A DNA stretch of 64,000 nucleotides, from positions 5,110-69,109 of the forward strand of contig CALHMG010000186.1 in assembly GCA_938034705.1 (NCBI GenBank), in the 5' to 3' direction. Source of the stretch: an uncultured Gammaproteobacteria bacterium (GTDB lineage: Bacteria > Pseudomonadota > Gammaproteobacteria > Arenicellales > CALHMG01). Within the stretch, counting starts at the first letter, position 1; every line of letters starts with the position of its first letter. A program made the translations under genes and the position numbers. Shown here piece by piece: positions 27,516-44,310 of this stretch. A model generated the notes under the pieces. That model was given only the letters and a program-made list of their open reading frames with translations, was not told the DNA's origin and searched no databases.

Positions 27516-30500
27516 CTATCCCGTCGGCCGCCGGGTCCGTGACGATGACCTGTTCGGGGCTTCGCTACCGCCTGACTCATCGTCGAGGGGACGATGTTCC
27601 GGCGCAAGATTCTGCAGTCTTGAGAAGCTCAGCATCACCCGCAGCTCAAGCGCTCGGGCTCCCTGCTCTTTTGCGGTCGAGAGGGCTTCGCGAAACAGTC
27701 GCGTCGCCGTCTCGGTGTCCCGGGCCGAGAGCGCAACTTCACCCTGAACTCGCAGGAGTTCGGCGCGCCAGTGCGCTTCACCGTGAAGCTCGGTGCGCTT
27801 GAGCGCGATTGTCGCGGTCTGGCCTGCACCCTTCACGTCGCCCGCACGCGCCTGGGCGCTGGCAACCATTGACAGAACCCACGGTTGTCCGATGCCGCCC
27901 TGACACTCGCGCATCGCCTTGAGCCCCATGCTCATTGTCTCCAGGCCTTCCTTGAGCTTGTTCTTCATGACCAGCGTCTGCCCTTTGAGGACGATCACGA
28001 CGGCAGACAGATATGAAAATTCGTTCTGAGTCGAAAGACGCGCAAACTGATCGACAATTTTGCTTACGGCGTTGGCGTTGCCCATGCAGATATTGGTTGC
28101 GCAAACCCAGAACAGCGTCATCGCAGCCATAAACGGCTGGGGTGTTTCGCGCGCCGCCTTGAGCGCGCTTTCGCAGGTCATCATGGCCAGCGCCGGATTG
28201 CCCGTCATCCACTGGGTCCATCCCAGATGTCCAAGTACCGCTGCGCGAAGGTCGATTTGTTCGGACAGCATCATGCCCGAATCCGAACCGTCTTCTTCAT
28301 GATCCAGAGCGCTCTCAAAGTGTTCTCGCGCGGTGGAGAAGTTACCGCTCCAGAATTCAACAGCGCCGTCCAGAAAGTCAGCTACCGCCTTTACGTGATT
28401 GCAGCTGTTGTCAGTGGCGAGCGCTCTTGCCCGTCCGGCGAGTTCGCGCGCCTGTTTGAGTTCACCACGCGCGTAGTAGCACGTGAAAAGGCCGCGAATC
28501 GCATCAAGATTCAGGGCATCGCTGTCTACTCGTTCACCCAGTTCAATGGCGCGTTCAAACGCGGCCTGGGCCGCTGTCGATGCAAAACCCTGCAGCGCGC
28601 GGTGTCCGGCGCCAAGCAGAATATGCAAGCGCATTTCGATTTTGTCGGTCTTACTGTTACGCGGTGACAGGGCGATGGCCGCCAGAGCGTTTTCGGCGTG
28701 ATCGATCATCTCCTTGTTTGATGCACGTCCAAACGCATCCTTCGCCGCCCGGGACCAGAACTTTGCTGATTCCCAGTGTCGACCCGCACGCGTCAGATGC
28801 CACGCAATCTCCGCCCAGCCGCCGGCGCCAATTTGGGGTTCGGCTACAAGGACGTCAGCGAGACTTCCGTGCAGTTCAGATCGTCTCTCCAGCAGCAGTC
28901 CGTCGTACGCGGCTTCCTGAATCAAGGCATGTCGGAAGGCATACATCGACTCACGTCGTCTTACTGGCTTTATCACGCCCGTCTCTATCAGCGAGTCGAT
29001 CGCAAGATCTGTGGTTGTCTGATCGCACTGCGCCAGACGCATCAACATGTCGGTTGTGAATTCGCGGCCGATGACGGCAGCTACCGACGCGATGTCGCGT
29101 TCAAAACCGGCTTTGCCGAGTTTGGCGCTGAGCAATTCACGCAGCGATTCGGGAATGCGGGTTTCGAGACCGGCATTCCTGTCTTCTACGCAAAGCGAAC
29201 GTGCGAGTTCCTGCGCAAACAGCGGATTGCCACCAGATCGATCGACAATGGCCTCGCGCGCGAATAAATCGGGTTTGTGAGTGCCGGCGATAACGTCGAC
29301 CAGCTGACCCGTTGCGCCCGCCGTGAGGCTCGCAAGTTCAACATGGGCAACGTGGGGGTGCGATACCCAGGATGCCGGAACTTCTCCGCGTGTTGTCACG
29401 ATGAGCAGAACACGGCGATCCTTGATCCGCGCGATCATCGTTTGCAGAAATTCAGCGGACGTCGGATCGATCCACTGTGCGTCTTCGACTATGGCCAGCA
29501 CCGTTTCGGTATTGGTCAGCTCTTCGAAAAGACCGCTTAACGCGGCGACCGTTTCTTCCTTGCGCAAAATCGGGATCGATCGCGACGCATCGGTGTCATC
29601 GGTATCGAGCAGGAAATTGAAAATAGGTATGGCTTTACTGACGTTTTCGCCTGAATCACGGACCAGTCTGCGCCAGGTGTCGCGAACTTCCAGGTCGTAG
29701 ACGTTTTCTCTTGCAAAACGAGCTGCGTGTTCCAGATGACTCAGAAACGGATACAGCGGTGATGCGGTGTGGTACGGCGAACACTGATAGGTAATCTGCG
29801 TCGGCTTTTCGGCTTCGGTTACAAGCGCCATTTCGGTCGCAAGTCTCGACTTGCCGATACCGGCCTCGCCAGAAATCACAACTACCTGTCCGAGGCCGCG
29901 ACGCGCATCCTCCCAAGCACGTCGAAGGCTCAGCATCTGGCCGGATCGGCCGATCAACGCGCCATCGTCGCTGTGTCGCCGCGACGCGGTCGCGGTGCTG
30001 GTGACGTGGGAAGTGATCGCCTTCCAGACACCCACCGGCTTTTCCATACCGGTCAGTGTGTGCGCTCCAAGATCTTCAAAATCAGCAGCGCGCCCGATGA
30101 GCCGGCGCGTCTGATCGGCAACGACCACCTCGCCAGCGGCGGCAAGGTGATGCAGACGCGACGCGACGTTTGGCGTTTGACCCACAATGGCGTGCTGTTC
30201 GGCCGAGCCCTCTCCAATCAGATCTCCCGCAACAACAAGTCCGGTAGCGATGCCAATGCGCACGGCGAGGGGGTCGGCCCCCTGATAGCCGGGATCGATT
30301 TCGGAAACCGCCTGAACGAGTTCCAGAGCGGTGTGCACCGCGCGCTCCGCGTCGTTCTCGTGGGCATTGGGGTAGCCGAAGTACGTCATGATGCCGTCGC
30401 CAACAAATCGCGCGATGTAGCCATCGTAGTGTTTGATGGTTTCGGTGCACGTGCTTTGGTATCGCCTTAAAATTTCGCGCCACTGCTCCGGGTCGAGGCG

Positions 30501-30857
30501 CTCGGAGAGTCTTGATGAACCGACCAGGTCGCAAAACATCACCGTCAGCTGGCGACGCTCGGCCGCCGTTGAATGTCCTTTCGGGACTTCAATTTTTTCG
30601 ATTTGCGAGTACGGCTCAATTGGATTGGCGAGCACCGAACGCACGGTTGCGTTCTTGGGTGACAGCGCAGGCGCCAGCGCCGCGAGTTCAAGACTGAAAC
30701 TTCGTCCGGCAAGGGACACACCACATCCACCACAGAACTGTTCTTCTTCTGTGTTCTGAAATCCGCAGCTGCGGCAGTTGGACATAAGTGCTGCGCCACA
30801 ATCAGCGCAGAAGCTTCTTTCAGGTCGGTTGTTGTGACTGCAATAAGCGCACTGCAT
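27516..30857 (-). CDS. Multidomain signalling protein: double zinc ribbon + class III adenylate/guanylate cyclase + AAA (STAND-like) ATPase + TPR repeats
   Basis: The N-terminus has CAYCSH..CADCG and CRSCGF..CGGCG. The cyclase core has TVMFCDLVGSS, ARFVGDGIMTYFG and GQTPNVASRL. The P-loop is ISGEAGIGKSRL, and the C-terminal roughly 450 aa is helical repeat. Confidence 0.9.
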   Translation of the reverse strand: MQCAYCSHNNRPERSFCADCGAALMSNCRSCGFQNTEEEQFCGGCGVSLAGRSFSLELAALAPALSPKNATVRSVLANPIEPYSQIEKIEVPKGHSTAAERRQLTVMFCDLVGSSRLSERLDPEQWREILRRYQSTCTETIKHYDGYIARFVGDGIMTYFGYPNAHENDAERAVHTALELVQAVSEIDPGYQGADPLAVRIGIATGLVVAGDLIGEGSAEQHAIVGQTPNVASRLHHLAAAGEVVVADQTRRLIGRAADFEDLGAHTLTGMEKPVGVWKAITSHVTSTATASRRHSDDGALIGRSGQMLSLRRAWEDARRGLGQVVVISGEAGIGKSRLATEMALVTEAEKPTQITYQCSPYHTASPLYPFLSHLEHAARFARENVYDLEVRDTWRRLVRDSGENVSKAIPIFNFLLDTDDTDASRSIPILRKEETVAALSGLFEELTNTETVLAIVEDAQWIDPTSAEFLQTMIARIKDRRVLLIVTTRGEVPASWVSHPHVAHVELASLTAGATGQLVDVIAGTHKPDLFAREAIVDRSGGNPLFAQELARSLCVEDRNAGLETRIPESLRELLSAKLGKAGFERDIASVAAVIGREFTTDMLMRLAQCDQTTTDLAIDSLIETGVIKPVRRRESMYAFRHALIQEAAYDGLLLERRSELHGSLADVLVAEPQIGAGGWAEIAWHLTRAGRHWESAKFWSRAAKDAFGRASNKEMIDHAENALAAIALSPRNSKTDKIEMRLHILLGAGHRALQGFASTAAQAAFERAIELGERVDSDALNLDAIRGLFTCYYARGELKQARELAGRARALATDNSCNHVKAVADFLDGAVEFWSGNFSTAREHFESALDHEEDGSDSGMMLSEQIDLRAAVLGHLGWTQWMTGNPALAMMTCESALKAARETPQPFMAAMTLFWVCATNICMGNANAVSKIVDQFARLSTQNEFSYLSAVVIVLKGQTLVMKNKLKEGLETMSMGLKAMRECQGGIGQPWVLSMVASAQARAGDVKGAGQTATIALKRTELHGEAHWRAELLRVQGEVALSARDTETATRLFREALSTAKEQGARALELRVMLSFSRLQNLAPEHRPLDDESGGSEAPNRSSSRTRRPTG

Positions 30858-32345: not shown

Positions 32346-32696
32346 CGCCAGACACAATGAAGGTTTCGCGGTGCAGATCGCAGTTGTGTCGCCGCCGACC
32401 GGAATCGGGTTGCGCAGCGACTTACGCGATAGCGCGTGCGTTTCGCCACATACGACCACGCCAGCGTGTTGTGTAATACGCCTGCTCTTTACAGGTGTTA
32501 CTCCGTATAGGGCAACGTCAGGGATGTTCGTATACTTTTTTGATTCGCACGGAGGCCGCAAACACGTTCTGAAACTGCAGTACCGGGGGGAAATCTAATG
32601 GAACATCGCGTATCTGAAACCAGGTCCAGGCACACAGATTCCGGGGGCCGGATGTCCGGGTCTGACATCTCAGGGTCGGGTCGCGCCAATCACAGA

Positions 32697-33395
32697 ATGT
32701 CTCAGGCTCTGGCCGAGTCCTTGAAGCAGGTCGATCTGTTCGCGACTCTTGATGACCAGGCGCTGCGCGCCGTCGCCGGAGTCTGCAGAATTCGTCACTA
32801 CGCCAGCGGCCAGCCTGTTCTTTCCCAGGGTGATGCGGGTACCGACGTTTACTTTGTTGTTGATGGCGAGCTCCGCGCGACGCTGTATTCGCCCACCGGC
32901 CGCGAGGTTGCATTTGAAGAGCTGCCAATCGGTTCCGTGTTTGGAGAACTGGCGGCGATCGACTCCGGGCCGCGCGCGACCACGGTACTTGCGCTGAGTG
33001 ACGCGACACTTGCGGTAATGAGCGCCGAAGGGTTCAAAGTCATGTTAAAGGCGCATCCCGGTATTGGGCTGGTGGTGCTTGAACGATTGACGCAGCTGGT
33101 GCGTCGACTCTGCGATCGTGTCTTTGAATACACCACGCTTGATGTGTCCCAGCGCGTCCAGTCAGAGTTGCTTCGGCTCGCCCAGGGCAAATCGGTTGAC
33201 GGAAACAGCATAGTCATTGACGACTTTCCAACTCATGCGGAGTTCGCCAACAGGATCAGCACTCACAGAGAAGCGGTTACCCGGGCGATAAACGCGCTTG
33301 AGCGTCGTTCACTGATTTCTCGCAGCAGCGGCCAGCTCGTTATCTGTGACTATCGCAAACTTGCAGAGATTGTCGGCGAACTTCGCTCGAACTGA
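32697..33395 (+). CDS. Crp/Fnr-family transcriptional regulator with an intact cNMP phosphate-binding cassette
   Basis: cNMP-binding domain (LFATLDDQAL...FGELAAIDSGPRATTVLA) and C-terminal HTH (HAEFANRISTHREAVTRAINALE). There is no FNR-type N-terminal Cys cluster. The start could also be at 32598 or 32652. Confidence 0.85.
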   Translation: MSQALAESLKQVDLFATLDDQALRAVAGVCRIRHYASGQPVLSQGDAGTDVYFVVDGELRATLYSPTGREVAFEELPIGSVFGELAAIDSGPRATTVLALSDATLAVMSAEGFKVMLKAHPGIGLVVLERLTQLVRRLCDRVFEYTTLDVSQRVQSELLRLAQGKSVDGNSIVIDDFPTHAEFANRISTHREAVTRAINALERRSLISRSSGQLVICDYRKLAEIVGELRSN

Positions 33396-33504: not shown

Positions 33505-34743
33505 ATGACGATAGCAGGGCTCCAGTATCGACCGTCCGGATGGGGCCTTGTTCGAATCGCTGCGTTCGTCGTCGCAATACTCTGGGTGATCGGACTGTTG
33601 TTCCCGGCTCCCGACAAAACCCTGGCTCATGTGCCGATTGCCCGGGATATCGCCGCCGACCCTCGGCTTCGGCCAGCGCTTGCCCCACGCGATGACGGTC
33701 GTGGCGTGCTTGACTACACGACCCTGCGCCAGATCAGTCCACAAACCAAAACGATCGCCTGGGTCGGCGGGTCTTCGACGATGCAGTATCGCGACGTCCA
33801 CAAGGCTCGGAAAAAAAAGAATCAGGACCTCGACAAGGCGGCCAGAAAAGCGAAGCGCCAGAAACGCAAATTGCGGGAGCTGTTGCCATCCAAAGTTCTT
33901 GACGAGTTGACGCAACGGTGTGATCTCGACTCCGTGGTTGACGTCTACATCAACCCCGGCATGCGCACGCTCGATCAGTACATTTTCCTGCAGCATGTGC
34001 TGGCGACGAAGCCCACCGCGTTGATTCTCACTCTCAACCCGTACTGGGCGTTTAACGATTTCGCGCTGAATCGAAGGCAGGATGTGTTCCCTGGTGCGCT
34101 GTATCGCGGTGTTGACGACGAGCTGACGCGTTTTTGGTCGAGTGTGCTTGGACAGCCGAGTGATTTCGCTTACGCGCGAGCCGCCCGGGTTCTCCCGGTT
34201 GTGCGTGACCGATGGGACTACCATCGTCAGCTTTTCGAGTTCTGGCAAGGTGTTCAGCCGAACATCCAGGGTACACAGAAGCAGCGTAACCAGCGCAAGC
34301 GCCAGCTTCGCAAAGAGGCGCAACGCGAATCGGTCGATACACTGAGAATGAGTCGATGTGCGCCCGATTGCATCAACGTCGATCCCGACGGCGCAAGCTA
34401 TCGTTTGCTTCGTCAGATGTTCGAGATGATCAGGAACAGCGGCGTTAACGCTGTCGTATACGAGGCTCCGCTGAATCTGAAAGGGCTGATGGACGATGTG
34501 CCGGACGCATCGGATGAAAATCTTGCCGCGCAGTTTGCGTCTTTGCTGAAACAACAGAGTGCGGCAATCAGAACGATTGCAGACGAGTTCAGTTCGCCGA
34601 GTGTTAGCGTTATCACTGCCGACGACTGGGAACCTGACGGGTTAAAGTTCAACGATGTCATTCATCTTTCGTCGATGGGCAATCTTCCGCAGGAACTGAC
34701 CGACGCCCTGGCACCCATGGTCGGGTGTGGAGCGACCCGGTGA
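33505..34743 (+). CDS. DltD-like / SGNH-type membrane-anchored acyltransferase-esterase (putative)
   Basis: A single N-terminal TM helix (LVRIAAFVVAILWVIGLLF), a block-I-like WVGGSST and a block-V-like DxxH (FNDVIHLSS) near the C-terminus. It lies immediately upstream of, and overlaps, the MBOAT gene. Confidence 0.55.
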   Translation: MTIAGLQYRPSGWGLVRIAAFVVAILWVIGLLFPAPDKTLAHVPIARDIAADPRLRPALAPRDDGRGVLDYTTLRQISPQTKTIAWVGGSSTMQYRDVHKARKKKNQDLDKAARKAKRQKRKLRELLPSKVLDELTQRCDLDSVVDVYINPGMRTLDQYIFLQHVLATKPTALILTLNPYWAFNDFALNRRQDVFPGALYRGVDDELTRFWSSVLGQPSDFAYARAARVLPVVRDRWDYHRQLFEFWQGVQPNIQGTQKQRNQRKRQLRKEAQRESVDTLRMSRCAPDCINVDPDGASYRLLRQMFEMIRNSGVNAVVYEAPLNLKGLMDDVPDASDENLAAQFASLLKQQSAAIRTIADEFSSPSVSVITADDWEPDGLKFNDVIHLSSMGNLPQELTDALAPMVGCGATR

Positions 34744-36002
34744 CCGACACATTCAGCGCATTTAGCTACTTTGTTAACTTCCTGGTGCTGCTGATTGTTG
34801 CGCTACCGGTTTACTATCTTCTGCCTTCGATTTCGCTGCGACGAATCTGGCTGATCGTGATTTCTGCGGCACTGATGTTTTATGTCGCGCCAAAACTTCT
34901 GCTGCTCTATCTGGTTTTCTGGCCTCTTGGCTACGCGCTTGTTGTCCTTTTGCGCAAGCAAAGCGAAAAGTCTGATGGTTCGCTTTATCTGGGGGCGGCG
35001 GTTGTGGCGGCTTTGCTGCCGCTTGTACTGTGGAAGTTGTTCAGTCACGAATTTGAAGCCCAGCTGAACCAGCTTTCTCGGGGTTTTCTGCTGCACGTCT
35101 TCGAGCCCTTCGCGCAAACCGATGCCGTGAAGTCAGCCGTGATTCCTGTTGGCCTGAGTTTTGCCACGTTCAGGCTGATTGATGTCATGGTGCAGACGCA
35201 TCTAGGACTTGTGCAGAAGATTTCGTTTTTGCGGTTCATGTACTTCGGTTTTTTCCCTTCCCTTCTTCCTGTTGGCCCCATTGCCGAATATCGTGAAGCC
35301 GGGGCTGAGAATGACCAGTGCGTTGCGGCCAGCGCAGAAAACTTTGGCGCCGGCGCAATGCGAATCCTGATTGGATGCGCGAAGATCTTCGTTCTGGCCT
35401 ATCCGCTGGCGTGGAGCACGAATATTTTTGAGTATCACGATTTCAACACTGCGGTGATGATGTGGGTAAGCCTGGCGGCATTCGCCATCTACTTCTGGCT
35501 TAACTTCTCTGGTTACTCCGACATTGCTATCGGCACGGCGCGTTTGCTGGGTGTTCAGCTCAAGGAAAATTTCAACAACCCTTACTGGCGACGTAACCCG
35601 CAGGAGTTCTGGGCCAACTGGCACATGAGCCTGACACGATTTGCGCAGCGCAATATTTTTGTTCCTCTCGGTGGCTTCAGAAAAAAGACACAGTTCATCG
35701 CGATATTCTGTACGATCATGACGATTGCGCTCTGGCATGACATTTCAGTGTCGCTGATTCTCTTCGGTCTTTACCACGCTGCCGGATTGATATTCGTCAG
35801 GATCTGGCAGGACCGCCGGTCCGGTTCTGCTGCATCTGTTTCTCCGGCGTCGGATGACGAAAGCCTGGCTCTCGGCGCTCGGGCGAAGGATATCGGTTCG
35901 CGTGTGGCAACTTTCGTCTTTGTTCTGCTGAGCTTTCCGATGCTGGTGCTTCCCTACCACGAATTGCCGGCCTTCTATCTGCGCCTGCTTTCACCCTTCT
36001 GA
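34725..36002 (+). CDS. MBOAT-family membrane-bound O-acyltransferase (DltB/AlgI-like)
   Basis: A multi-TM protein with FWANWHMSLTRFAQRNIFVPLGG and the conserved-His block IALWHD (His codon 35736-35738). GTG at 34725 or GTG at 34740 (GTGA overlap with the upstream stop) could be the start. Confidence 0.9.
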   Translation: MWSDPVTDTFSAFSYFVNFLVLLIVALPVYYLLPSISLRRIWLIVISAALMFYVAPKLLLLYLVFWPLGYALVVLLRKQSEKSDGSLYLGAAVVAALLPLVLWKLFSHEFEAQLNQLSRGFLLHVFEPFAQTDAVKSAVIPVGLSFATFRLIDVMVQTHLGLVQKISFLRFMYFGFFPSLLPVGPIAEYREAGAENDQCVAASAENFGAGAMRILIGCAKIFVLAYPLAWSTNIFEYHDFNTAVMMWVSLAAFAIYFWLNFSGYSDIAIGTARLLGVQLKENFNNPYWRRNPQEFWANWHMSLTRFAQRNIFVPLGGFRKKTQFIAIFCTIMTIALWHDISVSLILFGLYHAAGLIFVRIWQDRRSGSAASVSPASDDESLALGARAKDIGSRVATFVFVLLSFPMLVLPYHELPAFYLRLLSPF

Positions 36003-36017
36003 CCCACGAGTTCAACC

Positions 36018-36164
36018 ATGAAATCTGACAGCCCGGCACGCCCACGCTCTTTCATTTTGACGCTCGCGATAGAGTTCGGTATCGCCTTGTTTGCGGCGCT
36101 CGTCATCTTTCTTACGATTGCGCTGTCTCAGAAGAACATCGAGTTCGTATATCAGGGGTTTTGA
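36018..36164 (+). CDS. Small single-pass membrane protein with a C-terminal F-x-Y-x-x-F motif (DltX-like); not in the supplied ORF track
   Basis: Hand translation gives MKSDSPARPRSFILTLAIEFGIALFAALVIFLTIALSQKNIEFVYQGF*. The ATG lies 15 nt after the MBOAT stop. The N-terminus is basic, one TM helix follows, and the short tail ends in FVYQGF. Confidence 0.55.
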   Translation: MKSDSPARPRSFILTLAIEFGIALFAALVIFLTIALSQKNIEFVYQGF

Positions 36165-36233
36165 GTTCCATCGGTTGCGGCCAGTCGTTACAATTCCGGC
36201 CTCAAGCTCCCATGAGTTGCACGGAATTCAACT

Positions 36234-36470
36234 ATGTCTGACCCACTCTTTGACCTGTTTGCGCAAGGGCTGAAGGTATCGGCTGATCAATTGACGGACG
36301 AGTCTTCCCCGGACAACACGCCTCAATGGGACAGCCTGGCTGCAATGAATCTGGTCTCCCTTATAGAAGACACGTTCGATGTTGAACTGAGCACCCGCGA
36401 CATCATGCAGATGAGATCGATTGGTCTTGCGCGCCAGGCGCTGAAAGACAAGGGTGTCGACACTGTCTGA
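36234..36470 (+). CDS. Acyl/peptidyl carrier protein (DltC-like)
   Basis: 78 aa with phosphopantetheine attachment motif WDSLAAMNLVSLIE (Ser34, codon 36333-36335). Confidence 0.88.
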   Translation: MSDPLFDLFAQGLKVSADQLTDESSPDNTPQWDSLAAMNLVSLIEDTFDVELSTRDIMQMRSIGLARQALKDKGVDTV

Positions 36471-36476
36471 CGCTGA

Positions 36477-36516
36477 AAAGACCTCTGACCGGACTGTTCC
36501 GGTCAGCAGCGTCTTT
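36477..36516 (+). terminator. Terminator/attenuator-like hairpin between the carrier protein and the FkbH-like gene
   Basis: Perfect 9-bp stem CTGACCGGA / TCCGGTCAG with loop CTGT, extended by an outer AAAGAC / GTCTTT pairing and followed by TTTTGGG. Confidence 0.4.
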
Positions 36517-36576
36517 TGGGTTGCACGCGAAATCACACTGCCCTGACCGAACAGCACTGCACTGTACTGTATTGAA

Positions 36577-38325
36577 ATGAATCCCCTACTCGAGGCTCGC
36601 AAGCGATGGATGGCCTGGTCGCCACAGCATGATGCACCCCGAGTGAGCGTCGGTGTGTTGGGCAGCTACACGGTAGATCCGATGGTGCCTTATCTTGGCG
36701 ACGCGCTGGTTCAGCAGGGGCAGTCGCCGGATATCAGGGTTGCGCCATTCAACCAGCTGATTCAGGGAGCTCACAATCCTGGCGCTGCGTTCGATGGTGA
36801 CATACCTGACACTCTGGTCTTTATCTGGCGAATCGAAGATCTTTTTCCGTCACCAGTCGCACGATTTGTGGAAGGCGACGCCGCGGCGCTGTCAGATGTG
36901 TTTGATGGTCTTGATCAGTTTGCCGCAGCGTTGCGCCAGCTGCGTGCCGGTTTCGAGGGTACGGTCGTTGTGGGGATACCGCCCTGTCCGATGCTTGCGG
37001 TGATGGACATCGAACATCTAGCTGCGCACAGTTCGCTGACTGAACTGCACCGCAAGGTTGTGAGCCGTTGGCTTGATCTGCTCGATGAAATCAAGGGTCT
37101 GCTCAGGGTTGATCTTGATTCCATCGAACGTGCGATTGGCTCAACAAGCGCGGCGGATCCTCGCAAGTGGTATCTGTATCGTCAGCCGTACAAGGACGTC
37201 ATGCACAACGGTGTCGCACAGGCGTTGGCGCGAATTATTCGACTCGAGCGCGGCACGGACCTTGTGAAGTGCCTGGTGGTTGACTGTGATAACACGCTTT
37301 GGGGTGGTGTTGTCGGCGAGGACGGTGTGGAGGGTCTCGCTCTCGGGGAGGATTTTCCCGGCAGCGCATACGTTGATTTTCAAAGACAGCTTGTTGCTTT
37401 GCAAAAAACGGGACTCTTCATCACTCTCGTGAGCAAGAATAACGAAGCTGACGTGATGGAAGTCTTCGACCGCCATGACGCAATGATGCTGCGGCGCGAG
37501 CATCTCTCAACGTGGCGCATCAACTGGCAGCCCAAGTCGCAAAACATTACCGAAATCGCCAGCGAGCTGAATATTGGCCTTGATGCAATCGCGTTTATTG
37601 ATGACAGCTCGTTTGAGATCGAGGAAGTGAAAGCACGCACACCTGAAGTTTTGTGCCATCAGGTTCCTGAAGATGTTGCACTCCTGCCCAAGAGCATTCG
37701 CGACCTGCGAGTGTTTGAAAGAGTCGGGATCACCGAGGATGATCGTCGTCGAACCCGACTCGTGCAGGCCGAGAAGCAACGCATCAGCGCAAAAGGTACG
37801 GTAAGTGAAGAAGAATTTCTGAAAACTCAGGGCCTTTGTCTTACCGTTGGTGAGGCAACTGACGGTCAGATAGATCGAGTTACCCAGCTGATTAACAAGA
37901 CGAATCAGTTTAATCTGACAACCAGACGACGAACCCGCGAAGAGGTAGAAGCACTCGCCAACGCTGCCGATAGCAGAGTTTACTTTGCCACCGCTGCCGA
38001 TCGGTTTGGTGAATACGGTTTGATCGGTGTTGCGGTGGTGTCCTGTGCCGAGCGCAGCTGGCACCTGGATACCCTGCTGCTAAGCTGCAGGGCGCTGGGC
38101 AGAAAGATCGAAACTGCGTTTGTGGCGCGAATTGGCGATGACGCATCCGCGACCGGTATAGCAACGCTGACAGCAGAGTTTATTGAGACCGCAAAAAATA
38201 CCCCGGCAAAATCGTTTTTGCCCGACCACGGATTTACGGTTTCTGGCGCAAACGCTTTTACGGCAGAGATCAAAAATATGCCTCCGTGTCCTGACTTTAT
38301 TCAAGTGAAGAGCTTTGGTTCATGA
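36577..38325 (+). CDS. HAD-superfamily subfamily IIIC / FkbH-like protein (putative carrier-protein loader)
   Basis: HAD motif I VVDCDNTLWGG (37282-37296), LVSKNN, FIDDSSFEIEEV, and a C-terminal GNAT-like region with LLLSCRALGRKIE (Cys codon 38086-38088). Confidence 0.88.
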   Translation: MNPLLEARKRWMAWSPQHDAPRVSVGVLGSYTVDPMVPYLGDALVQQGQSPDIRVAPFNQLIQGAHNPGAAFDGDIPDTLVFIWRIEDLFPSPVARFVEGDAAALSDVFDGLDQFAAALRQLRAGFEGTVVVGIPPCPMLAVMDIEHLAAHSSLTELHRKVVSRWLDLLDEIKGLLRVDLDSIERAIGSTSAADPRKWYLYRQPYKDVMHNGVAQALARIIRLERGTDLVKCLVVDCDNTLWGGVVGEDGVEGLALGEDFPGSAYVDFQRQLVALQKTGLFITLVSKNNEADVMEVFDRHDAMMLRREHLSTWRINWQPKSQNITEIASELNIGLDAIAFIDDSSFEIEEVKARTPEVLCHQVPEDVALLPKSIRDLRVFERVGITEDDRRRTRLVQAEKQRISAKGTVSEEEFLKTQGLCLTVGEATDGQIDRVTQLINKTNQFNLTTRRRTREEVEALANAADSRVYFATAADRFGEYGLIGVAVVSCAERSWHLDTLLLSCRALGRKIETAFVARIGDDASATGIATLTAEFIETAKNTPAKSFLPDHGFTVSGANAFTAEIKNMPPCPDFIQVKSFGS

Positions 38326-39212
38326 CCGCCGCCTACAACGAAATTTCAAGTCGCCTTGAGGCCGTCCCCTACATACGACGGTCGGTAGATGAGGTGAAAC
38401 TCGCCGGCGGTGACCAGTGGCTGGCGACGCTGGACGACCATATGGAGAATTTCGCGGGCTATCTCGCTGAAACCGGCGGCAGCATCGATGACGCGGTTGA
38501 AGGTTTTGTTGAGATGACGCTGGAGACCATCCGTCTGCAGCAAAATTTCTTCAAGACCGGGAAGTTCAATACACTGGACGACTACGATGATCAGGCAGAT
38601 GTCTATCAGGACAGAGACCTGATGGTGAGACGCTACCTGCCGGGGCTTTATCTGGCCCAGCTGCTCTGGAAAAACCATTACCAGAAACTGCGATTTTTCA
38701 CCGATCGAGTTGTGCCTGAGGCGCAATCCGCCGACCGAGCCTTCGACGTTGGCGCTGGACCCGGCACCTTTGGGCTGACGCTGGCCAGTCGTTATCCAGA
38801 ACTTGCGGTCACGTTCAACGACATCAGCCCTTTCAGCGAGGAAATGATTACGGCACTCGCCAAACGAAAAACGGGTATTGATTTCCTGCCTGGCGATTTC
38901 CTCAAGCTCGACGTTACCCGACCCTATGATTTTGTTGTGTTCAGCGAAGTTGTGGAACACCTGAGTGATCCCGGAGCCGGGATGGACAAACTGCTCGACG
39001 TGGTTGCAGCTGATGGCAAGGTTTTCTTCAGCACCGCGACCAACGCGGCGTTTTACGACCACACCATTATTTACGAGTCAGTTGCGGAGATTCGCTCGAT
39101 GATCAAAGACCATGGCTTTGACATTGAGTTCGACGAAGAGGTGATGGCGCTTGAGTCCGGTGATGGTGTTGATGTGATTGACTACAACGCCGTGATCAGG
39201 CGAGCTGGCTGA
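38322..39212 (+). CDS. Class I SAM-dependent methyltransferase (paralog 1)
   Basis: Motif I FDVGAGPGTFG and the post-I acidic FNDIS. Its N-terminal helical domain is shared with the paralog at 39648. There is a 4-nt overlap with the FkbH-like stop. Confidence 0.85.
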   Translation: MTAAYNEISSRLEAVPYIRRSVDEVKLAGGDQWLATLDDHMENFAGYLAETGGSIDDAVEGFVEMTLETIRLQQNFFKTGKFNTLDDYDDQADVYQDRDLMVRRYLPGLYLAQLLWKNHYQKLRFFTDRVVPEAQSADRAFDVGAGPGTFGLTLASRYPELAVTFNDISPFSEEMITALAKRKTGIDFLPGDFLKLDVTRPYDFVVFSEVVEHLSDPGAGMDKLLDVVAADGKVFFSTATNAAFYDHTIIYESVAEIRSMIKDHGFDIEFDEEVMALESGDGVDVIDYNAVIRRAG

Positions 39213-39215
39213 ACC

Positions 39216-39644
39216 ATGGTCGAACCCAACAACGCTGCTGGGCTTGAACTTGCGCACATAGGTTACGTCGTCAACAACATGGACGGTGCCCTGAAGCGGT
39301 TCGTTCGTGAAGGCGCGACCATCGTGATGTCATCCTGTCATGACCCGATTCAAAAAGTTCACGTGGCGGTGGTTGAACTGCCGGGCAACGTTTTGATCGA
39401 GCTTGTCGCGCCAGACGACAGCGGCAGTTCGCCGGTTGAGGCTCGGCTTGGTCGCGGCGGTGGGCTGGATCATCTTTGTTACTTTACCGATGATATTGAG
39501 GCCGCGATAAAAACCGAAACCGAACAGGGTGCCGTCGTCGTGTGCGAGCCGGTATTTGCGGTCGCCTTCAATGCCACGGTGGCGTTTGTCCATCGACGCA
39601 CCGGCCTTGTGGTTGAATATATGACTCGACCGGAGGTTGCTTAG
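39216..39644 (+). CDS. VOC-family (glyoxalase / methylmalonyl-CoA epimerase-like) protein
   Basis: LAHIGYVVNNMDGALKRF...IELVAP...LDHLCYFTDDIEAA...VEYM is the typical paired beta-alpha-beta-beta-beta VOC pattern with His/Glu metal ligands. Confidence 0.8.
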   Translation: MVEPNNAAGLELAHIGYVVNNMDGALKRFVREGATIVMSSCHDPIQKVHVAVVELPGNVLIELVAPDDSGSSPVEARLGRGGGLDHLCYFTDDIEAAIKTETEQGAVVVCEPVFAVAFNATVAFVHRRTGLVVEYMTRPEVA

Positions 39645-39647
39645 TCG

Positions 39648-40574
39648 ATGGACCGGACCGAACTCGAGAAATTTGCCAGGCCCTTCGCCAGCCAGTGGAT
39701 TGCGGAAAACGTGCCGATGATTTCCGGCGGGCTGACGGTGTTCCAGGAAGCGCTGGCGGACGACGACCGCGAGATTATCGATGATGTGTTCTGGCGTTTT
39801 ATCCAGAACCACGAGGACCCCAGGGCCGCTCTCGCCGGCGGGCTCGAGTCTTTTTCGACAATCAGCGTGGATTTTCTCAGGCTTCAGGGGCGCTTTATGC
39901 GTAGCGGCAAGTATCGCGCGGCCGCCAACCCGGAGACGTTGCAGGAGCTGTACGCCGACGGCGAGCGAATGCGCGGTTACTATCTCGACGGTCTTTTTCT
40001 GACCTATGCGCTGTGGCCGAACCACGTGCAGATGCTCAAATTCTTCAGAGATCGATTTCTTGCGCGTTTGCCCGAGAACGTTTCGTTGCTCGAGGTCGGC
40101 GTGGGTCATGGATTGATGGCGTCATTGATGCTGGAGCAGTTACCCGGCAGTAGCTATCACGGGATCGATATTTCCAGTCACTCAATCGACTACGCGATGG
40201 AAAACTTTTCACCTGCGCTCAAACAGGCGGGTCGGGTAAAGATGAGTTGCGCTGATATCACCGACCCGGCGCTCAAGCCCGGACATCATGATGCAGTTGT
40301 ATGTTGCGAAGTACTTGAGCATGTTCTTGAGCCCGATGTTCTGCTCGAGGCGCTGAGTCGGTCCGTTGAGGCTGGCAGTTTCGGGTTTCTCACGACGGTC
40401 GCAAATATGGAAGCCGAAGACCATGTCTATCTCTTTCATGATGCGGATGACATTCGCACCCATATCACCAGGGGCGGATTTGAGATTGTCGAAGACCAGG
40501 CCAACGGGTTGCCGGGAATGGAAGATGCGACCCCGCGTCCGCTGAACTACAGCGCAATCGTTCAACGCACCTGA
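39648..40574 (+). CDS. Class I SAM-dependent methyltransferase (paralog 2)
   Basis: Motif I LLEVGVGHGLM and CCEVLEHV. Its N-terminal region aligns with the paralog at 38322 (LRLQGRFMRSGKY vs IRLQQNFFKTGKF; LWPNHVQMLKFFRDRF vs LWKNHYQKLRFFTDRV). Confidence 0.85.
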   Translation: MDRTELEKFARPFASQWIAENVPMISGGLTVFQEALADDDREIIDDVFWRFIQNHEDPRAALAGGLESFSTISVDFLRLQGRFMRSGKYRAAANPETLQELYADGERMRGYYLDGLFLTYALWPNHVQMLKFFRDRFLARLPENVSLLEVGVGHGLMASLMLEQLPGSSYHGIDISSHSIDYAMENFSPALKQAGRVKMSCADITDPALKPGHHDAVVCCEVLEHVLEPDVLLEALSRSVEAGSFGFLTTVANMEAEDHVYLFHDADDIRTHITRGGFEIVEDQANGLPGMEDATPRPLNYSAIVQRT

Positions 40575-40687: not shown

Positions 40688-41386
40688 ATGTTTGATAGCG
40701 TTTATCTGTCTCGCAAAAAACCGATGAACGGATATCTCGCACCGTGCCGGAGTTTTAGTTTGTACGACCTTGCCGAAATCCGCAGCGCACTCAATGTGGC
40801 GCCGGGCCTTCAGTTTGAATCCGCAGAGAAGCGAGCTTCAGTCGCGTTGATTCTCAGAAGCGTTGATGACGAAACACAGGTTTTTTTGATTCGCCGCGCC
40901 GACAAGGATGGTGACCCATGGTCCGGACATATGGCATTTCCCGGTGGCCGGGTTGAAGCAACAGATCGCGATCTGGAGCACACCGCGCGGCGGGAAACTC
41001 TGGAGGAGACTGAGCTCGTCATTACGAGTGAGGATTGTATTGGTCGCATAGATGACGTCCAGGGCCGCTCCAGAGGCAGGAGTATCGGGCTGGTTATTTC
41101 ATGTTTTGTGTTTCAGATCGATGCTGACCGTGGTGAGCGACCGGTTGGCAACTATGAAGTCGCCTCAACCCACTGGGTACCGCTGTCCTGGTTCAGTGAT
41201 TCAACTCGATTCCTTCATTACTACCCACCGAAGCCGCACGGCGACGTCTATCCTGGGATGCGGATCGGTGACCATGAACGCGAAATACTGTGGGGCCTGA
41301 CGTATCGGTTCATGTGCGATTTCTTTTCCCGGCTTGGGACTTCGCTCCCTGAAACTACAGGCGAAATCACACCAAAATCCGGCTGA
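40688..41386 (+). CDS. Nudix hydrolase, CoA-pyrophosphatase-like
   Basis: Nudix box GGRVEATDRDLEHTARRETLEETEL, preceded by FLIRRADKDGDPWSGHMAFPGG, which resembles the CoA pyrophosphatase signature. The start is uncertain (40688 or 40724). Confidence 0.78.
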   Translation: MFDSVYLSRKKPMNGYLAPCRSFSLYDLAEIRSALNVAPGLQFESAEKRASVALILRSVDDETQVFLIRRADKDGDPWSGHMAFPGGRVEATDRDLEHTARRETLEETELVITSEDCIGRIDDVQGRSRGRSIGLVISCFVFQIDADRGERPVGNYEVASTHWVPLSWFSDSTRFLHYYPPKPHGDVYPGMRIGDHEREILWGLTYRFMCDFFSRLGTSLPETTGEITPKSG

Positions 41387-41408
41387 TTCAGTGCGTCCGT
41401 ACCACTGC

Positions 41409-41470
41409 GGCTGGACGACCGTGATATCGTGATCGGCCTGATTCAAAAGAGCCACGATGCTGGTCCAGCC
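41409..41470 (+). promoter_or_regulatory. Structured leader hairpin immediately upstream of moaA
   Basis: Outer stem GGCTGGAC (41409-41416) / GTCCAGCC (41463-41470) and inner stem ATCGTG (41426-41431) / CACGAT (41453-41458). It ends 11 nt before the moaA ATG. Confidence 0.3.
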
Positions 41471-41481
41471 TCGCAGAACCC

Positions 41482-42552
41482 ATGACCAACGTTCCTTTTA
41501 ATCCTTCACCGAAGTCGTTGTCTTCAGGCGTAGAAAAATCCTCGGGCGTCGTCGATCAGCGGGGCCGCGGCATACGGGACTTGCGAATCTCGGTAACGGA
41601 TCGTTGTAACTTCCGATGTGTTTACTGCATGCCCAAGGAACTGTTTGGTTCTGATCATGCGTTTTTGCCGCGTGCTGAACTGCTGAACTTTGAGGAAATC
41701 GAACGGATCGCTCGCGCGTTCGCAAGCCTTGGGGTAACCAAGCTACGGCTGACCGGCGGTGAGCCTCTGGTACGCAAGGAACTTGAAACGCTGATCAGTC
41801 AGCTTGCGGTGATACCCGGTATTGATGATGTGAGCCTCACCACTAACGGCTCGCTGTTGACGCTCGATAAGGGACGCGCGCTAAAAGATGCCGGACTGAA
41901 GCGACTCACCATCAGTCTCGACGCCGTGACCGAAGAAGTATTCTCGGCAATCAATGACGTCAAATTTCCTGTCGCCAAGGTGCTCGGTGCCGTCGACAAC
42001 GCGCTTGCTGCGGGTCTTGATCCAATCAAGGTCAACATGGTTGTGGCCAAGGGGATGAACGAGGAGGAGATCCTGCCCATGGTGCGTCAGTTCAAAGGCA
42101 CCGGCGTGATCCTGCGATTTATCGAGTTTATGGATGTTGGCAACACCAACGGGTGGAAGCTTGATCGCGTTGTTTCTGCGCGTGAGATTGTCGAGACCAT
42201 AGCCAGCGAATTTCCCGTTGAGCCCCTGAACGCCAACTACCCTGGCGAGGTTGCGAGCCGATGGAAGTTTTCAGACGGCAGCGGTGAGATTGGTGTTATT
42301 TCATCTGTGACCAAACCGTTTTGTTCCAGCTGCACCCGCGCGCGACTGTCCGCCGAGGGGAGCGTCTACACGTGTCTGTTCGCCAGCGAGGGCACCGACC
42401 TCCGTGCGCTCGTTCGAAGTGGCGCGAGTGATGACGAGCTGCGCGACGCAGTCCAGAACGTCTGGTCACACAGAGACGATCGATATTCGGAGCTGCGCTC
42501 CGACGCTACTGTCGATCTTCCAAAAGTTGAAATGTCCTACATCGGGGGGTGA
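41482..42552 (+). CDS. moaA: GTP 3',8-cyclase MoaA (radical SAM)
   Basis: RISVTDRCNFRCVYCMP, a C-terminal second cluster CSSCTRARLSAEG, and a terminal GG. Confidence 0.95.
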   Translation: MTNVPFNPSPKSLSSGVEKSSGVVDQRGRGIRDLRISVTDRCNFRCVYCMPKELFGSDHAFLPRAELLNFEEIERIARAFASLGVTKLRLTGGEPLVRKELETLISQLAVIPGIDDVSLTTNGSLLTLDKGRALKDAGLKRLTISLDAVTEEVFSAINDVKFPVAKVLGAVDNALAAGLDPIKVNMVVAKGMNEEEILPMVRQFKGTGVILRFIEFMDVGNTNGWKLDRVVSAREIVETIASEFPVEPLNANYPGEVASRWKFSDGSGEIGVISSVTKPFCSSCTRARLSAEGSVYTCLFASEGTDLRALVRSGASDDELRDAVQNVWSHRDDRYSELRSDATVDLPKVEMSYIGG

Positions 42553-42600
42553 CGCGGCGGACCGCTTTGTCCCCGGGTACAAGGCACGCCCTCGGCGCTT

Positions 42601-43131
42601 TTATTTTTCGAGGAGTCGTGGCATGAGCTCGACCAGGTTGCACGGCCTCGTGCGGTAGTCGAGTTGGTGCACGATCAGGCGGTCCCACGCTGTTGCGCAC
42701 GCGCCGGAGGATCCCGGAAGACAAAAAACGTAAGTGCCGTTGGCAACGCCCGCAACCGCACGGGACTGCAGCGTTGAAGTTTTGATTTCCTCGTATGACA
42801 GCACTCTGAACATTTCACCAAAGCCCGTGATGATCTTGTCGAGCAGAGGTTCGACGGCCTCGGGAGTTCCGTCACGTCCGGTAACACCTGTGCCACCGGT
42901 GCTGACAATCACCTGGACGTCGGGGTTCGCAATCCAGTCCGACATCGCAGCGCGGATCTGATACATGTCGTCCTTAACGATGCGTTTGTCTGCGAGGTTA
43001 TGACCGGCCTCAACCAGCCTTGTGGCCAGCAGTTTGCCGGACTTGTCGTTTTCCTCGGTTCGTGAGTCAGAGACAGTGAGAACACTGATATTGACCGGGA
43101 TCAGTTCCCGTGCGGCTCGGTTTTCAGTCAT
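42601..43131 (-). CDS. moaB: Molybdenum cofactor biosynthesis protein MoaB (MogA-like fold)
   Basis: ISVLTVSDSRT...STGGTGVTGRDGTPEA matches the MoaB/MogA pattern. Confidence 0.9.
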   Translation of the reverse strand: MTENRAARELIPVNISVLTVSDSRTEENDKSGKLLATRLVEAGHNLADKRIVKDDMYQIRAAMSDWIANPDVQVIVSTGGTGVTGRDGTPEAVEPLLDKIITGFGEMFRVLSYEEIKTSTLQSRAVAGVANGTYVFCLPGSSGACATAWDRLIVHQLDYRTRPCNLVELMPRLLEK

Positions 43132-43229
43132 GGATGGCGCTCCTCAAGACGGCATGGATTGCGCAAACTGCGCCTGACCCGATGATACACTGGCTGACCC
43201 GGTTCAAGCCGTGCCGACGTGACACACCG

Positions 43230-43463
43230 ATGAGCATAAAGGTCCATTTTTTTGCCAGTTTGAGCGAGCGTCTCGGTTTGTCCGAGACCGAGGTCAGCTC
43301 GGCGTCGGCGACCACCGCTCTGGATGTCTGGGTCGAGGCGACGGGGCAGACCGAACTCGCCGACAACATTCTGATCGCCGTGAATAAGGAATATGCGAAG
43401 TCTGACACCGGCATCGAAGACGGTGACGAGGTCGCGTTCTTTCCTCCGGTGACGGGCGGCTGA
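43230..43463 (+). CDS. moaD: Molybdopterin synthase sulfur carrier subunit MoaD
   Basis: 77 aa from the ATG at 43230, with a ubiquitin-like fold pattern and C-terminal FFPPVTGG. Confidence 0.88.
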   Translation: MSIKVHFFASLSERLGLSETEVSSASATTALDVWVEATGQTELADNILIAVNKEYAKSDTGIEDGDEVAFFPPVTGG

Positions 43464-43473
43464 GGGCACCCGT

Positions 43474-43917
43474 ATGAAAGTCGAGATCTTCCCCAAGACC
43501 TTTGATCCCTGGCGTTCGCTTGTCGACTACCAGGCGCAGAATCTCGAGTCCGGTTCTTTCGGCGCGACCGCGACGTTCGTCGGCACGATGCGCGATTTCA
43601 ACGAGGGCGACGACGTTACAGCGATGACGCTGGAGCACTACCCGGGAATGACCGAAAAAGAACTTGAACGGATCGCAAGCGAAGCGGTAGCAGAGTATGA
43701 CCTCGCCGACGTCTACCTGGCACACCGAGTGGGTGACATTGCGCCGGGTGATCCGATCGTTCTGGTTGCCGTCTGGTCATCGCACAGACGCGAGGCGTTT
43801 GTAGCCTGTCGCGAAATTATGGAGTTCCTGAAATCACGCGCGCCATTCTGGAAAAAAGAAACGCTCAAAGGCGACAGTCAAAGCGCGCGGTGGGTTGAGA
43901 AAAACACCGCCGGTTAA
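43474..43917 (+). CDS. moaE: Molybdopterin synthase catalytic subunit MoaE
   Basis: GATATFVGTMRDFNEGD...HRVGDIAPGDPIVLVAVWSSHRREAF...APFWKKE. Confidence 0.92.
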   Translation: MKVEIFPKTFDPWRSLVDYQAQNLESGSFGATATFVGTMRDFNEGDDVTAMTLEHYPGMTEKELERIASEAVAEYDLADVYLAHRVGDIAPGDPIVLVAVWSSHRREAFVACREIMEFLKSRAPFWKKETLKGDSQSARWVEKNTAG

Positions 43918-43981
43918 AGTGCCCACGCTCGCCATGAGCTGGCAGCAGTTACAGTTACAAAAAATCAAAGAGGAATCAGAC

Positions 43982-44284
43982 ATGAGTCAACTTGATGATC
44001 AGACCCGGACCGAGCTTGAGGCCGCAGTGTTCAGGCGTCTTGTCACACACCTGCAGGACAACACTGATGTCCAGAATATTGATCTGATGAATCTGGCGAG
44101 CTTCTGTCGCAACTGCCTGTCAAAGTGGTATAGCGCCGCGGCTGACGACAAGGGCATTGAGATTGACTACGGTGCGGCTCGCGAAATCGTTTACGGCATG
44201 CCCTACGATGAGTGGAAGGAAAAATATCAGACCGAAGCGACGCCTGAACAAAAAGCGGCATACGCCGCGAAGCACGACAAGTAG
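43982..44284 (+). CDS. DUF1244-family protein
   Basis: The ATG at 43982 follows AAGAGGAA. The sequence TELEAAVFRRLVTHL...NLASFCRNCLSKWY is typical of DUF1244. Confidence 0.75.
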   Translation: MSQLDDQTRTELEAAVFRRLVTHLQDNTDVQNIDLMNLASFCRNCLSKWYSAAADDKGIEIDYGAAREIVYGMPYDEWKEKYQTEATPEQKAAYAAKHDK

Positions 44285-44310
44285 CACAAGGGTCTCGAGA
44301 CGCTGACGCG

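Follow-up and report, generated by a model that had tools for sequence, protein, structure and literature searches.

A 48-residue membrane microprotein in an FkbH-type MBOAT cassette is most likely an acyl shuttle analogous to DltX

Introduction

Is a 48-codon open reading frame (ORF) that stands between the genes for an MBOAT acyltransferase and a small carrier protein a gene at all, and if so, what does its product do? The ORF occupies positions 36018-36164 on the + strand of a stretch of 64,000 nucleotides from an uncultured gammaproteobacterium, hereafter called the window, and ends in the hexapeptide FVYQGF. A preliminary description of this DNA had proposed it as a candidate acyl-shuttle peptide resembling DltX, a membrane microprotein of teichoic-acid D-alanylation. 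The tyrosine that is invariant in the C-terminal FXYXXF motif of DltX, the "acyl shuttle", takes D-alanine from DltB, an MBOAT protein, and hands it to the catalytic serine of the SGNH protein DltD, and PatA auto-acetylates the equivalent tyrosine in its fused motif (PMC12148441). The DltX tail reads FIYNEF in L. plantarum (PMC13653941) and FLYFGF in another DltX (PMC11035591). The motif given in the preliminary description, F-x-Y-x-x-F with a tyrosine that carries the acyl group between DltB and DltD, is correct according to these sources (PMC12148441, PMC13653941, PMC11035591). We conclude that 36018-36164 encodes a single-pass microprotein that is most likely, with a probability of roughly three in four, the acyl shuttle of a three-part membrane machine, by analogy with DltX in the D-alanylation of teichoic acids.

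A conserved gene for a membrane microprotein

The ORF starts with ATG at 36018 and stops with TGA at 36162-36164, and its product is MKSDSPARPRSFILTLAIEFGIALFAALVIFLTIALSQKNIEFVYQGF. The start codon follows the end of the MBOAT ORF (36002) after a gap of 15 nt, and 69 nt separate the stop codon from the start of the carrier-protein ORF at 36234. The length, the ending and the location between the two genes had all been described in this way, and the sequence and ORF coordinates bear them out. The same holds for the topology signature: the N-terminus is net basic (K2, R8 and R10 versus D4), a single hydrophobic stretch covers approximately F12-L36, and the remaining 12 residues, S37-F48, form a tail that ends F43-V-Y45-Q-G47-F48 directly before the stop codon. 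By the positive-inside rule, the microprotein is predicted to cross the membrane once, with the N-terminus inside and the C-terminus outside. The tail fits FXYXXF, and the glycine at position -2 from the C-terminus is common to FVYQGF and the FLYFGF tail of DltX.

Frames with the ending F.Y..F are scarcer than expected by chance. The window has 1,686 stop-to-stop frames with a length of 20 amino acids or more, counted over all six reading frames, and the microprotein is the only one with this ending. Across 1.17 Mb of related loci the ending occurred in 51 of 26,987 frames, and all but 4 of these were the ORF located beside the MBOAT and SGNH genes.

A protein search returned two close relatives of the microprotein, with 90% and 69% identity, both of which have divergent N-termini and keep the tail SQKNIEFVYQGF. 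The gene order MBOAT-microprotein-acyl carrier protein (ACP)-FkbH is common to the window and the contigs of both relatives. An exhaustive HMMER search of 1.84 billion representatives with a three-sequence profile recovered only the known close relative and spurious transmembrane (TM) matches in long proteins. Over 1,500 proteins of the collection are related to the MBOAT protein of the window; the best 120 of those listed are nearly all about 400-413 amino acids long, which is the size of DltB, and their source names are "AlgI", "DltB", "MBOAT family O-acyltransferase", "hypothetical protein" or none. For the comparison of loci, a scan with the MBOAT alignment using one genome per species gave 80 loci, to which we added the two close-relative contigs; the counts below refer to this set, which was collected via MBOAT similarity and is phylogenetically non-independent.

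An FkbH/ACP cassette was present in 65 loci, counting the 80 scanned loci and the two close-relative contigs together. In 62 of the 65, a single-TM ORF with the ending F-[IV]-Y-x-G-[FYLI]-stop adjoins the MBOAT gene or the SGNH-like gene, and the contigs of the remaining three (L013, L037 and L055) stop short of the expected microprotein position. The ORF, its frame and its motif are kept in every orthologous locus that reaches this position (62/62), so that the conservation tests proposed in the preliminary description came out in favour of the gene. The hosts of the FkbH-type loci include Alpha-, Beta- and Gammaproteobacteria, Actinomycetota, Pirellulales, Hydrogenedentota and Pseudobdellovibrionaceae, and among the Actinomycetota the cassette is carried by the cultured Terrabacter sp. 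Root85, Nocardioides jensenii, Nocardioides marmoriginsengisoli and Marmoricola sp. URHB0036.

Codon usage at the motif was examined across the 62 orthologues. Phe(-6) was present in all of them, encoded by TTC in 50 and TTT in 12, as was Tyr(-4), encoded by TAT in 24 and TAC in 38, so that the codons of the two invariant residues vary only synonymously. Gly(-2) was present in 60 of the 62 and used all four glycine codons, and all three stop codons were found. The ratio of nonsynonymous to synonymous differences (pN/pS) between the window microprotein and its two close relatives was 0.16 and 0.31. In an alignment of 39 family members, F43 and Y45 were invariant and E19 and G47 were conserved in at least 90%; the alignment was nearly gap-free from the helix residue Glu19 to the motif, with the spacing fixed at 24 residues. 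On this evidence from homologues, synteny and codon-level conservation, 36018-36164 is a real gene under protein-level selection.

The MBOAT and SGNH-like partners

The DltB-type MBOAT acyltransferase is encoded directly upstream at 34725-36002 on the + strand (Pfam MBOAT, E = 5e-19). Translation probably starts from GTG at 34740, which gives 420 amino acids and overlaps the upstream stop codon, rather than from 34725. In PDB, only DltB chains are related to the protein in sequence, and the best structural matches of an AlphaFold 2 (AF2) model with a pLDDT of 87.9 are DltB structures (6bug and 8jem), with TM-scores of 0.72-0.74 normalised on either length. Residue H333 aligns with His336 and H295 with His289, which are active-site residues of DltB (PMC11035591), and both histidines of the window protein are invariant in 38 MBOAT relatives. 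With its 420-425 amino acids the protein has a C-terminus of its own, ...AFYLRLLSPF, which is not FxYxxF. A Phe-Tyr pair (35973-35978, in ...PAFYLRLLSPF) is situated eight residues from this C-terminus in the last predicted helix of the MBOAT family; F412 is conserved in at least 90% and Y413 in all of 38 sequences, and the pair does not fit FxYxxF.

On the other side of the MBOAT gene, and adjoining it in the related loci as well, is a gene for an SGNH-like, membrane-anchored protein of 412 amino acids (33505-34743, +), a putative counterpart of DltD. The mechanical ORF opens with a GTG (33346) within the 3' end of a Crp-type gene; the more likely start is ATG at 33505, which corresponds to the product on record and lies just before the membrane anchor. 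An alignment of 34 homologues contains an N-terminal TM anchor, an invariant serine in a GGSS block and an Asp-x-x-His close to the C-terminus (S143, D437 and H440 in 465-aa numbering), which is the pattern of the classical SGNH triad. The match to Pfam Lipase_GDSL_2 is weak (E = 0.0026), and a profile of the 34 homologues gave no PDB chain above threshold and only sub-threshold matches to Pfam GDSL families. The AF2 model was built from a four-sequence alignment, the word-index homology search having found four proteins, and is poor (pLDDT 46). Its top Foldseek match in a search of 350,542 chains is DltD (3bma; E = 5e-3, probability 0.90), followed by SGNH esterases, a result that we take as a hint. 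An SGNH fold, as suggested by this model and the triad pattern, is likely but not established.

The two membrane helices appear to be linked by covariation. Glu19 at the beginning of the helix of the microprotein (36072-36074) covaries with an arginine that starts the anchor helix of the SGNH-like protein (33553-33555, in LVRIAAF). This arginine was present in 54 of 54 loci in which the microprotein has the glutamate and in none of the four in which it does not; the Glu-less and Arg-less loci (L045, L046, L049 and L052) have the tail FIYDGI. The covariation agrees with a helix-helix contact that has been predicted between DltX and DltD (PMC13653941), and the helix of the microprotein and the SGNH anchor are probably packed together by way of a Glu19-Arg ion pair.

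The cassette and its proposed chemistry

Downstream of the microprotein gene, all on the + strand, the window encodes a carrier protein, its putative loader and three candidate tailoring enzymes. The ACP has 78 residues (36234-36470; PP-binding, E = 1.1e-6) and its phosphopantetheine-attachment residue is Ser34 in the sequence W-D-S-L. NCBIfam ACP models match it weakly, ACPs in PDB are matched, and it is 53-96% identical across the related loci. The next gene, at 36577-38325, codes for a protein of 582 amino acids with an FkbH domain of the HAD-IIIC type, which matches TIGR01686 with 304 bits (cut-off 146.65) and TIGR01681 with 72 bits; the protein was found in 62 related loci. Judged by its family, it is a putative glyceryl-S-ACP-making loader that would take the place of DltA, and a DltA-type adenylating ligase is missing from the cassette as well as from all 65 related loci.

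A class I S-adenosylmethionine-dependent methyltransferase (MT1) follows at 38322-39212, with its start overlapping the FkbH stop (Pfam Methyltransf_23/12/25/11, with a weak BioC-like match), and most related loci have at least one such gene. A protein of the VOC or glyoxalase fold is encoded at 39216-39644 (Glyoxalase_4, E = 5.7e-21). It also matches TIGR03081, the methylmalonyl-CoA epimerase model, below the cut-off (E = 1.9e-12) and was detected by tblastn in over half, not all, of the related loci. A second class I methyltransferase, MT2, ends the cassette at 39648-40574 (Pfam Methyltransf_12/23/11/25) and has counterparts in related loci. MT1 is a putative tailoring enzyme for the ACP-bound acyl group, and the VOC-fold protein is a putative epimerase or isomerase that may act on the acyl-thioester, since its fold includes methylmalonyl-CoA epimerase.

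The genes of the cassette are tightly packed, and several of their boundaries overlap or nearly abut. The window and its two close relatives share the order SGNH-MBOAT-microprotein-ACP-FkbH-MT-VOC-MT (33505-40574 in the window), which is rearranged relative to that usual in the related loci, ACP-FkbH-MBOAT-SGNH-microprotein-MT/VOC. In locus L007 the microprotein gene is located between the MBOAT and SGNH genes. In each arrangement the small gene stands next to the gene of a proposed partner, MBOAT or SGNH-like protein, and in all 62 loci it is co-encoded with both of these and with the ACP and FkbH proteins. The general traits of an MBOAT-SGNH shuttle, namely the invariant MBOAT histidine, a C-terminal tyrosine hexapeptide and an SGNH triad in a weakly supported SGNH fold, are co-encoded in the window and the 62 loci. 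The window also has the traits of a glyceryl-ACP module, an FkbH protein above threshold beside a stand-alone ACP with the DSL serine.

These assignments suggest a pathway of four steps. In the first, as expected from family membership, the FkbH-type enzyme would load a glycerate-derived C3 unit from 1,3-bisphosphoglycerate onto the ACP; enzymes of the FkbH family convert 1,3-bisphosphoglycerate to glyceryl-S-ACP (PMC7489565). In the second and more speculative step, MT1, MT2 and the VOC protein might tailor the ACP-bound unit, for example by O-methylation or epimerisation at C2. FkbH together with a methyltransferase produces O-methylglycerate units in aeruginosin-type pathways (PMC10143770). 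In the third step, the DltB-type MBOAT would accept the acyl group, on the cytoplasmic side, from its thioester with the ACP, and the histidine pair H295/H333 of the MBOAT would esterify Tyr45 of the extracytoplasmic FVYQGF tail. In the fourth, the acylated tail would pass the group to the catalytic serine of the SGNH-like protein and from there to an acceptor in the envelope. The last two steps follow the analogy with DltB/DltX/DltD and PatA/PatB, combined with the conservation pattern, and it is on the same analogy that we infer the acyl-tyrosine chemistry of the microprotein. The cargo is probably glycerate-derived, as judged from the sequence of the loader.

Comparison with DltX

The microprotein and DltX have much in common. 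Both are single-pass proteins of about 45-50 amino acids that end in F-x-Y-x-x-F with an invariant tyrosine (FVYQGF here; FIYNEF and FLYFGF in DltX), and both are co-encoded with a DltB-type MBOAT that has no motif of its own fused to it, with a small carrier protein and with a membrane-anchored protein, which is of the SGNH type in Dlt and likely so in the cassette. For both, evidence points to contact between the helix of the microprotein and that of the SGNH anchor. The differences concern the family, the pathway and the hosts. The window family has no detectable similarity to Pfam DltX, its last motif residue may be F, Y, L or I, and it has a conserved glutamate in the helix. The gene follows that for the MBOAT or the SGNH-like protein, whereas dltX is the first gene of its operon, and the cassette hosts are Gram-negative bacteria and Actinomycetota, whereas those of DltX are Firmicutes. 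Finally, the cassette has an FkbH-type loader, methyltransferases and a VOC enzyme instead of DltA, and the cargo should therefore be something other than D-alanine.

The term "DltX-like" in the preliminary description thus holds for the mechanism and fails for family membership: PF12459 (DltX) is unmatched, and the pathway has an FkbH-type loader and no DltA. For these two reasons we do not file the protein in the DltX family; by analogy, it is most likely a functional counterpart of DltX and not a member of that family.

Alternative explanations

Several observations weigh against the acyl-shuttle assignment. Pfam and NCBIfam scans of the window peptide gave no match at E <= 0.1, PF12459 matched none of the 39 family members even at E <= 10, with only scattered noise in the Pfam scan of these members, and no PDB chain matched the peptide, for which the sequence search gave one chance match (E = 8). 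The last residue of the motif varies among the 62 orthologues (F in 31, Y in 22, L in 5 and I in 4), and a strict FxYxxF is accordingly not universal. The microprotein profile aligns weakly with that of a second MBOAT clade, described below (hhalign probability 39%). For the SGNH assignment there are invariant residues, a Pfam match under the threshold and a model of low confidence, and the exceptions to the Glu-Arg pairing form a single clade, which amounts to one evolutionary event. No clear Shine-Dalgarno sequence was found upstream of the microprotein gene; the neighbouring cassette genes likewise have none. A search for conserved flanking genes found nothing shared beyond the cassette and no gene for acceptor synthesis; the acceptor is therefore probably made elsewhere, and it may be a common component of the envelope.

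The alternative that survives best accepts the shuttle and questions its cargo: the FkbH protein might load another small acyl group, or the methyltransferases and the VOC protein might act on the acceptor. In favour of this, the cassette lacks dehydrogenases and a FabH-like enzyme, with which FkbH is associated in methoxymalonyl-ACP and tetronate pathways, and no model is matched by the first 229 residues of the FkbH protein. Yet the match to the FkbH model TIGR01686 runs over its full length (positions 3-322 of 323) and scores about twice the curated cut-off, the described members of the family turn 1,3-bisphosphoglycerate into glyceryl-ACP (PMC7489565), and the pairing of FkbH with an O-methyltransferase has a precedent (PMC10143770). 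We consider a different cargo unlikely, though worth keeping in mind.

It is also conceivable that the microprotein is a structural or assembly subunit that joins the MBOAT and the SGNH-like protein, with the acyl group passing directly and without an acyl-tyrosine intermediate. The Glu-Arg covariation implies packing of the helix against the SGNH anchor, which fits a scaffold as well as a shuttle, and one structural study of DltB considered that DltX and DltD might act as scaffolds or regulators (PMC11035591). The strongest conservation, however, is in the extracytoplasmic tail and not in the helix (Phe(-6) and Tyr(-4) in 62/62, Gly(-2) in 60/62), the invariant residue is the same tyrosine that is acylated in DltX and PatA (PMC12148441), and the near-fixed spacing between the helix glutamate and the motif is as expected of a tail that has to reach two active sites. 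A purely structural role thus seems improbable to us.

Far less plausible is an ordinary dlt operon for D-alanylation in an unusual host, with the ORF a plain DltX orthologue. The best curated match of the MBOAT is indeed a DltB model, its only solved relatives are DltB, and genes for a carrier protein and an SGNH-like protein are present. But the score against the NCBIfam DltB model TIGR04091 is 138 bits, far under the equivalog cut-off of 375 bits, neither the cassette nor the 65 related loci contain a DltA-type ligase, in the place of which there is an FkbH-domain protein, the DltX model is unmatched, and Dlt has nothing that corresponds to the methyltransferases and the VOC protein. The weakest explanation, a chance frame, a non-functional ORF or a regulatory leader peptide for the downstream carrier-protein gene, could appeal to the shortness of the ORF, the missing curated family match and the want of an obvious Shine-Dalgarno sequence, and it is hardly credible, since the chance or non-coding version is excluded by conservation across phyla, solely synonymous changes at the invariant Phe and Tyr codons and the low pN/pS, besides the single occurrence of the motif among the window frames, and the leader version is excluded because the ORF is mostly found 3' of the SGNH gene and not 5' of the ACP gene.

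Other known systems and a second clade

MBOAT/SGNH pathways other than Dlt are stated to be without a carrier protein and a DltX-like microprotein, with acyl-CoA as donor and a motif that is part of the MBOAT in all of them (PMC12148441). For PatA/PatB and AlgI-type MBOAT-SGNH pairs, as for the cassette in the window, the proposed route leads from the MBOAT histidine to an acyl-tyrosine on a C-terminal hexapeptide, and from there to the SGNH serine and the polymer. In the PatA and AlgI types, however, the MBOAT itself bears the motif on two additional TM helices, and the donor is acyl-CoA with no carrier protein, whereas the cassette encodes a carrier protein and has the motif in a peptide of its own. 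The FkbH modules of polyketide, tetronate and aeruginosin pathways resemble the cassette in that the FkbH enzyme is paired with a stand-alone ACP, and the loading modules of the aeruginosin type also in the pairing with an O-methyltransferase. Unlike these, the cassette has no polyketide synthase, nonribosomal peptide synthetase, FabH-like enzyme or dehydrogenase, and the user of its acyl-ACP would be a membrane-bound MBOAT/SGNH export machine, which points to a destination in the cell envelope and not to a secondary metabolite.

The scan also recovered a second MBOAT clade (L065-L081) from Brevibacillus, Alicyclobacillus, Pelotomaculum, Chthonomonadales and a metagenome-assembled genome of Opitutaceae, in which the MBOAT gene is directly followed by a single-TM ORF of 36-60 amino acids that ends in FIY[TVI]DF. 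Like the FkbH-type loci, these loci have a separate single-TM microprotein after a DltB-sized MBOAT and near an SGNH-like gene (upstream of it in L071:6559-9031). They differ in that no ACP or FkbH was detected by tblastn with the window proteins or among the ORFs of L071 that were examined, in that their MBOAT is 30-38% identical, and in that lysine or arginine often takes the place of the glutamate of the FkbH-type family. One of the microproteins weakly matches Pfam DltX (E = 0.0029). The clade appears to have a split acyl-shuttle system of a second kind, and such microproteins seem to be present in at least two kinds of system other than Dlt.

Genomic surroundings

A Crp-type regulator with a cyclic-nucleotide-binding domain is encoded directly upstream of the cassette (32598-33395, +), and a protein of 1,113 amino acids with double-zinc-ribbon, class III nucleotide cyclase, AAA and TPR domains is encoded on the - strand at 27516-30857. 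Neither is conserved beside the cassette elsewhere; in the window they may provide local control by a cyclic nucleotide. The downstream segment, 40688-45759, contains genes for a NUDIX hydrolase, for the molybdenum-cofactor proteins MoaA and a MoaB-like protein, and for a sulfatase, as well as small ORFs that look MoaD/MoaE-like by eye. The adjacency of moaA was considered as a link to the cassette and discarded as coincidence, with a good tblastn match only in the Terrabacter locus L018 and a partial one of 31% identity in L059. Scans of the window for promoters and terminators gave sites that were no commoner than in shuffled sequence, and an Rfam scan of the window matched no RNA family.

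Implications

In full-text searches, whose coverage does not include the primary 2023 paper on the acyl shuttle, no paper joined FkbH with DltB, DltD or AlgI, and the co-mentions of FkbH and MBOAT concerned only unrelated cyanobacterial peptide clusters. A carrier-protein-dependent MBOAT-SGNH cassette with a microprotein is widespread and apparently undescribed. The acyl-tyrosine shuttle has been established recently, and Dlt alone has been stated to use a carrier protein and a separate microprotein (PMC12148441); the locus in the window and its relatives represent a second microprotein family, unrelated to DltX in sequence, fed by a carrier protein and accompanied by another loader, FkbH, and other tailoring enzymes.

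The family offers a natural comparison for the essential features of DltX, namely the tyrosine, Phe(-6), Gly(-2), the spacing from helix to motif and the ion pair between helices. It is also a reminder that genes of 36-60 codons that are essential to such machines go without names in public annotation. Since cultured bacteria carry the cassette, the shuttle hypothesis is directly testable.

The findings suggest that marine and soil bacteria modify their envelopes in a way that has yet to be characterised. Tentatively, and as a possibility rather than an expectation, we suggest that a self-contained, horizontally spread cassette uses the acyl-tyrosine microprotein to attach, in ester linkage, a glycerate-derived acyl group, which may be O-methylated, to an envelope component that is widely shared, for example peptidoglycan, a surface glycan or the head group of a membrane lipid. 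If true, bacterial envelope modifications would gain a new class, present in both Gram-negative bacteria and Actinomycetota, and carrier-fed, microprotein-mediated MBOAT pathways would not be unique to the D-alanylation of teichoic acids.

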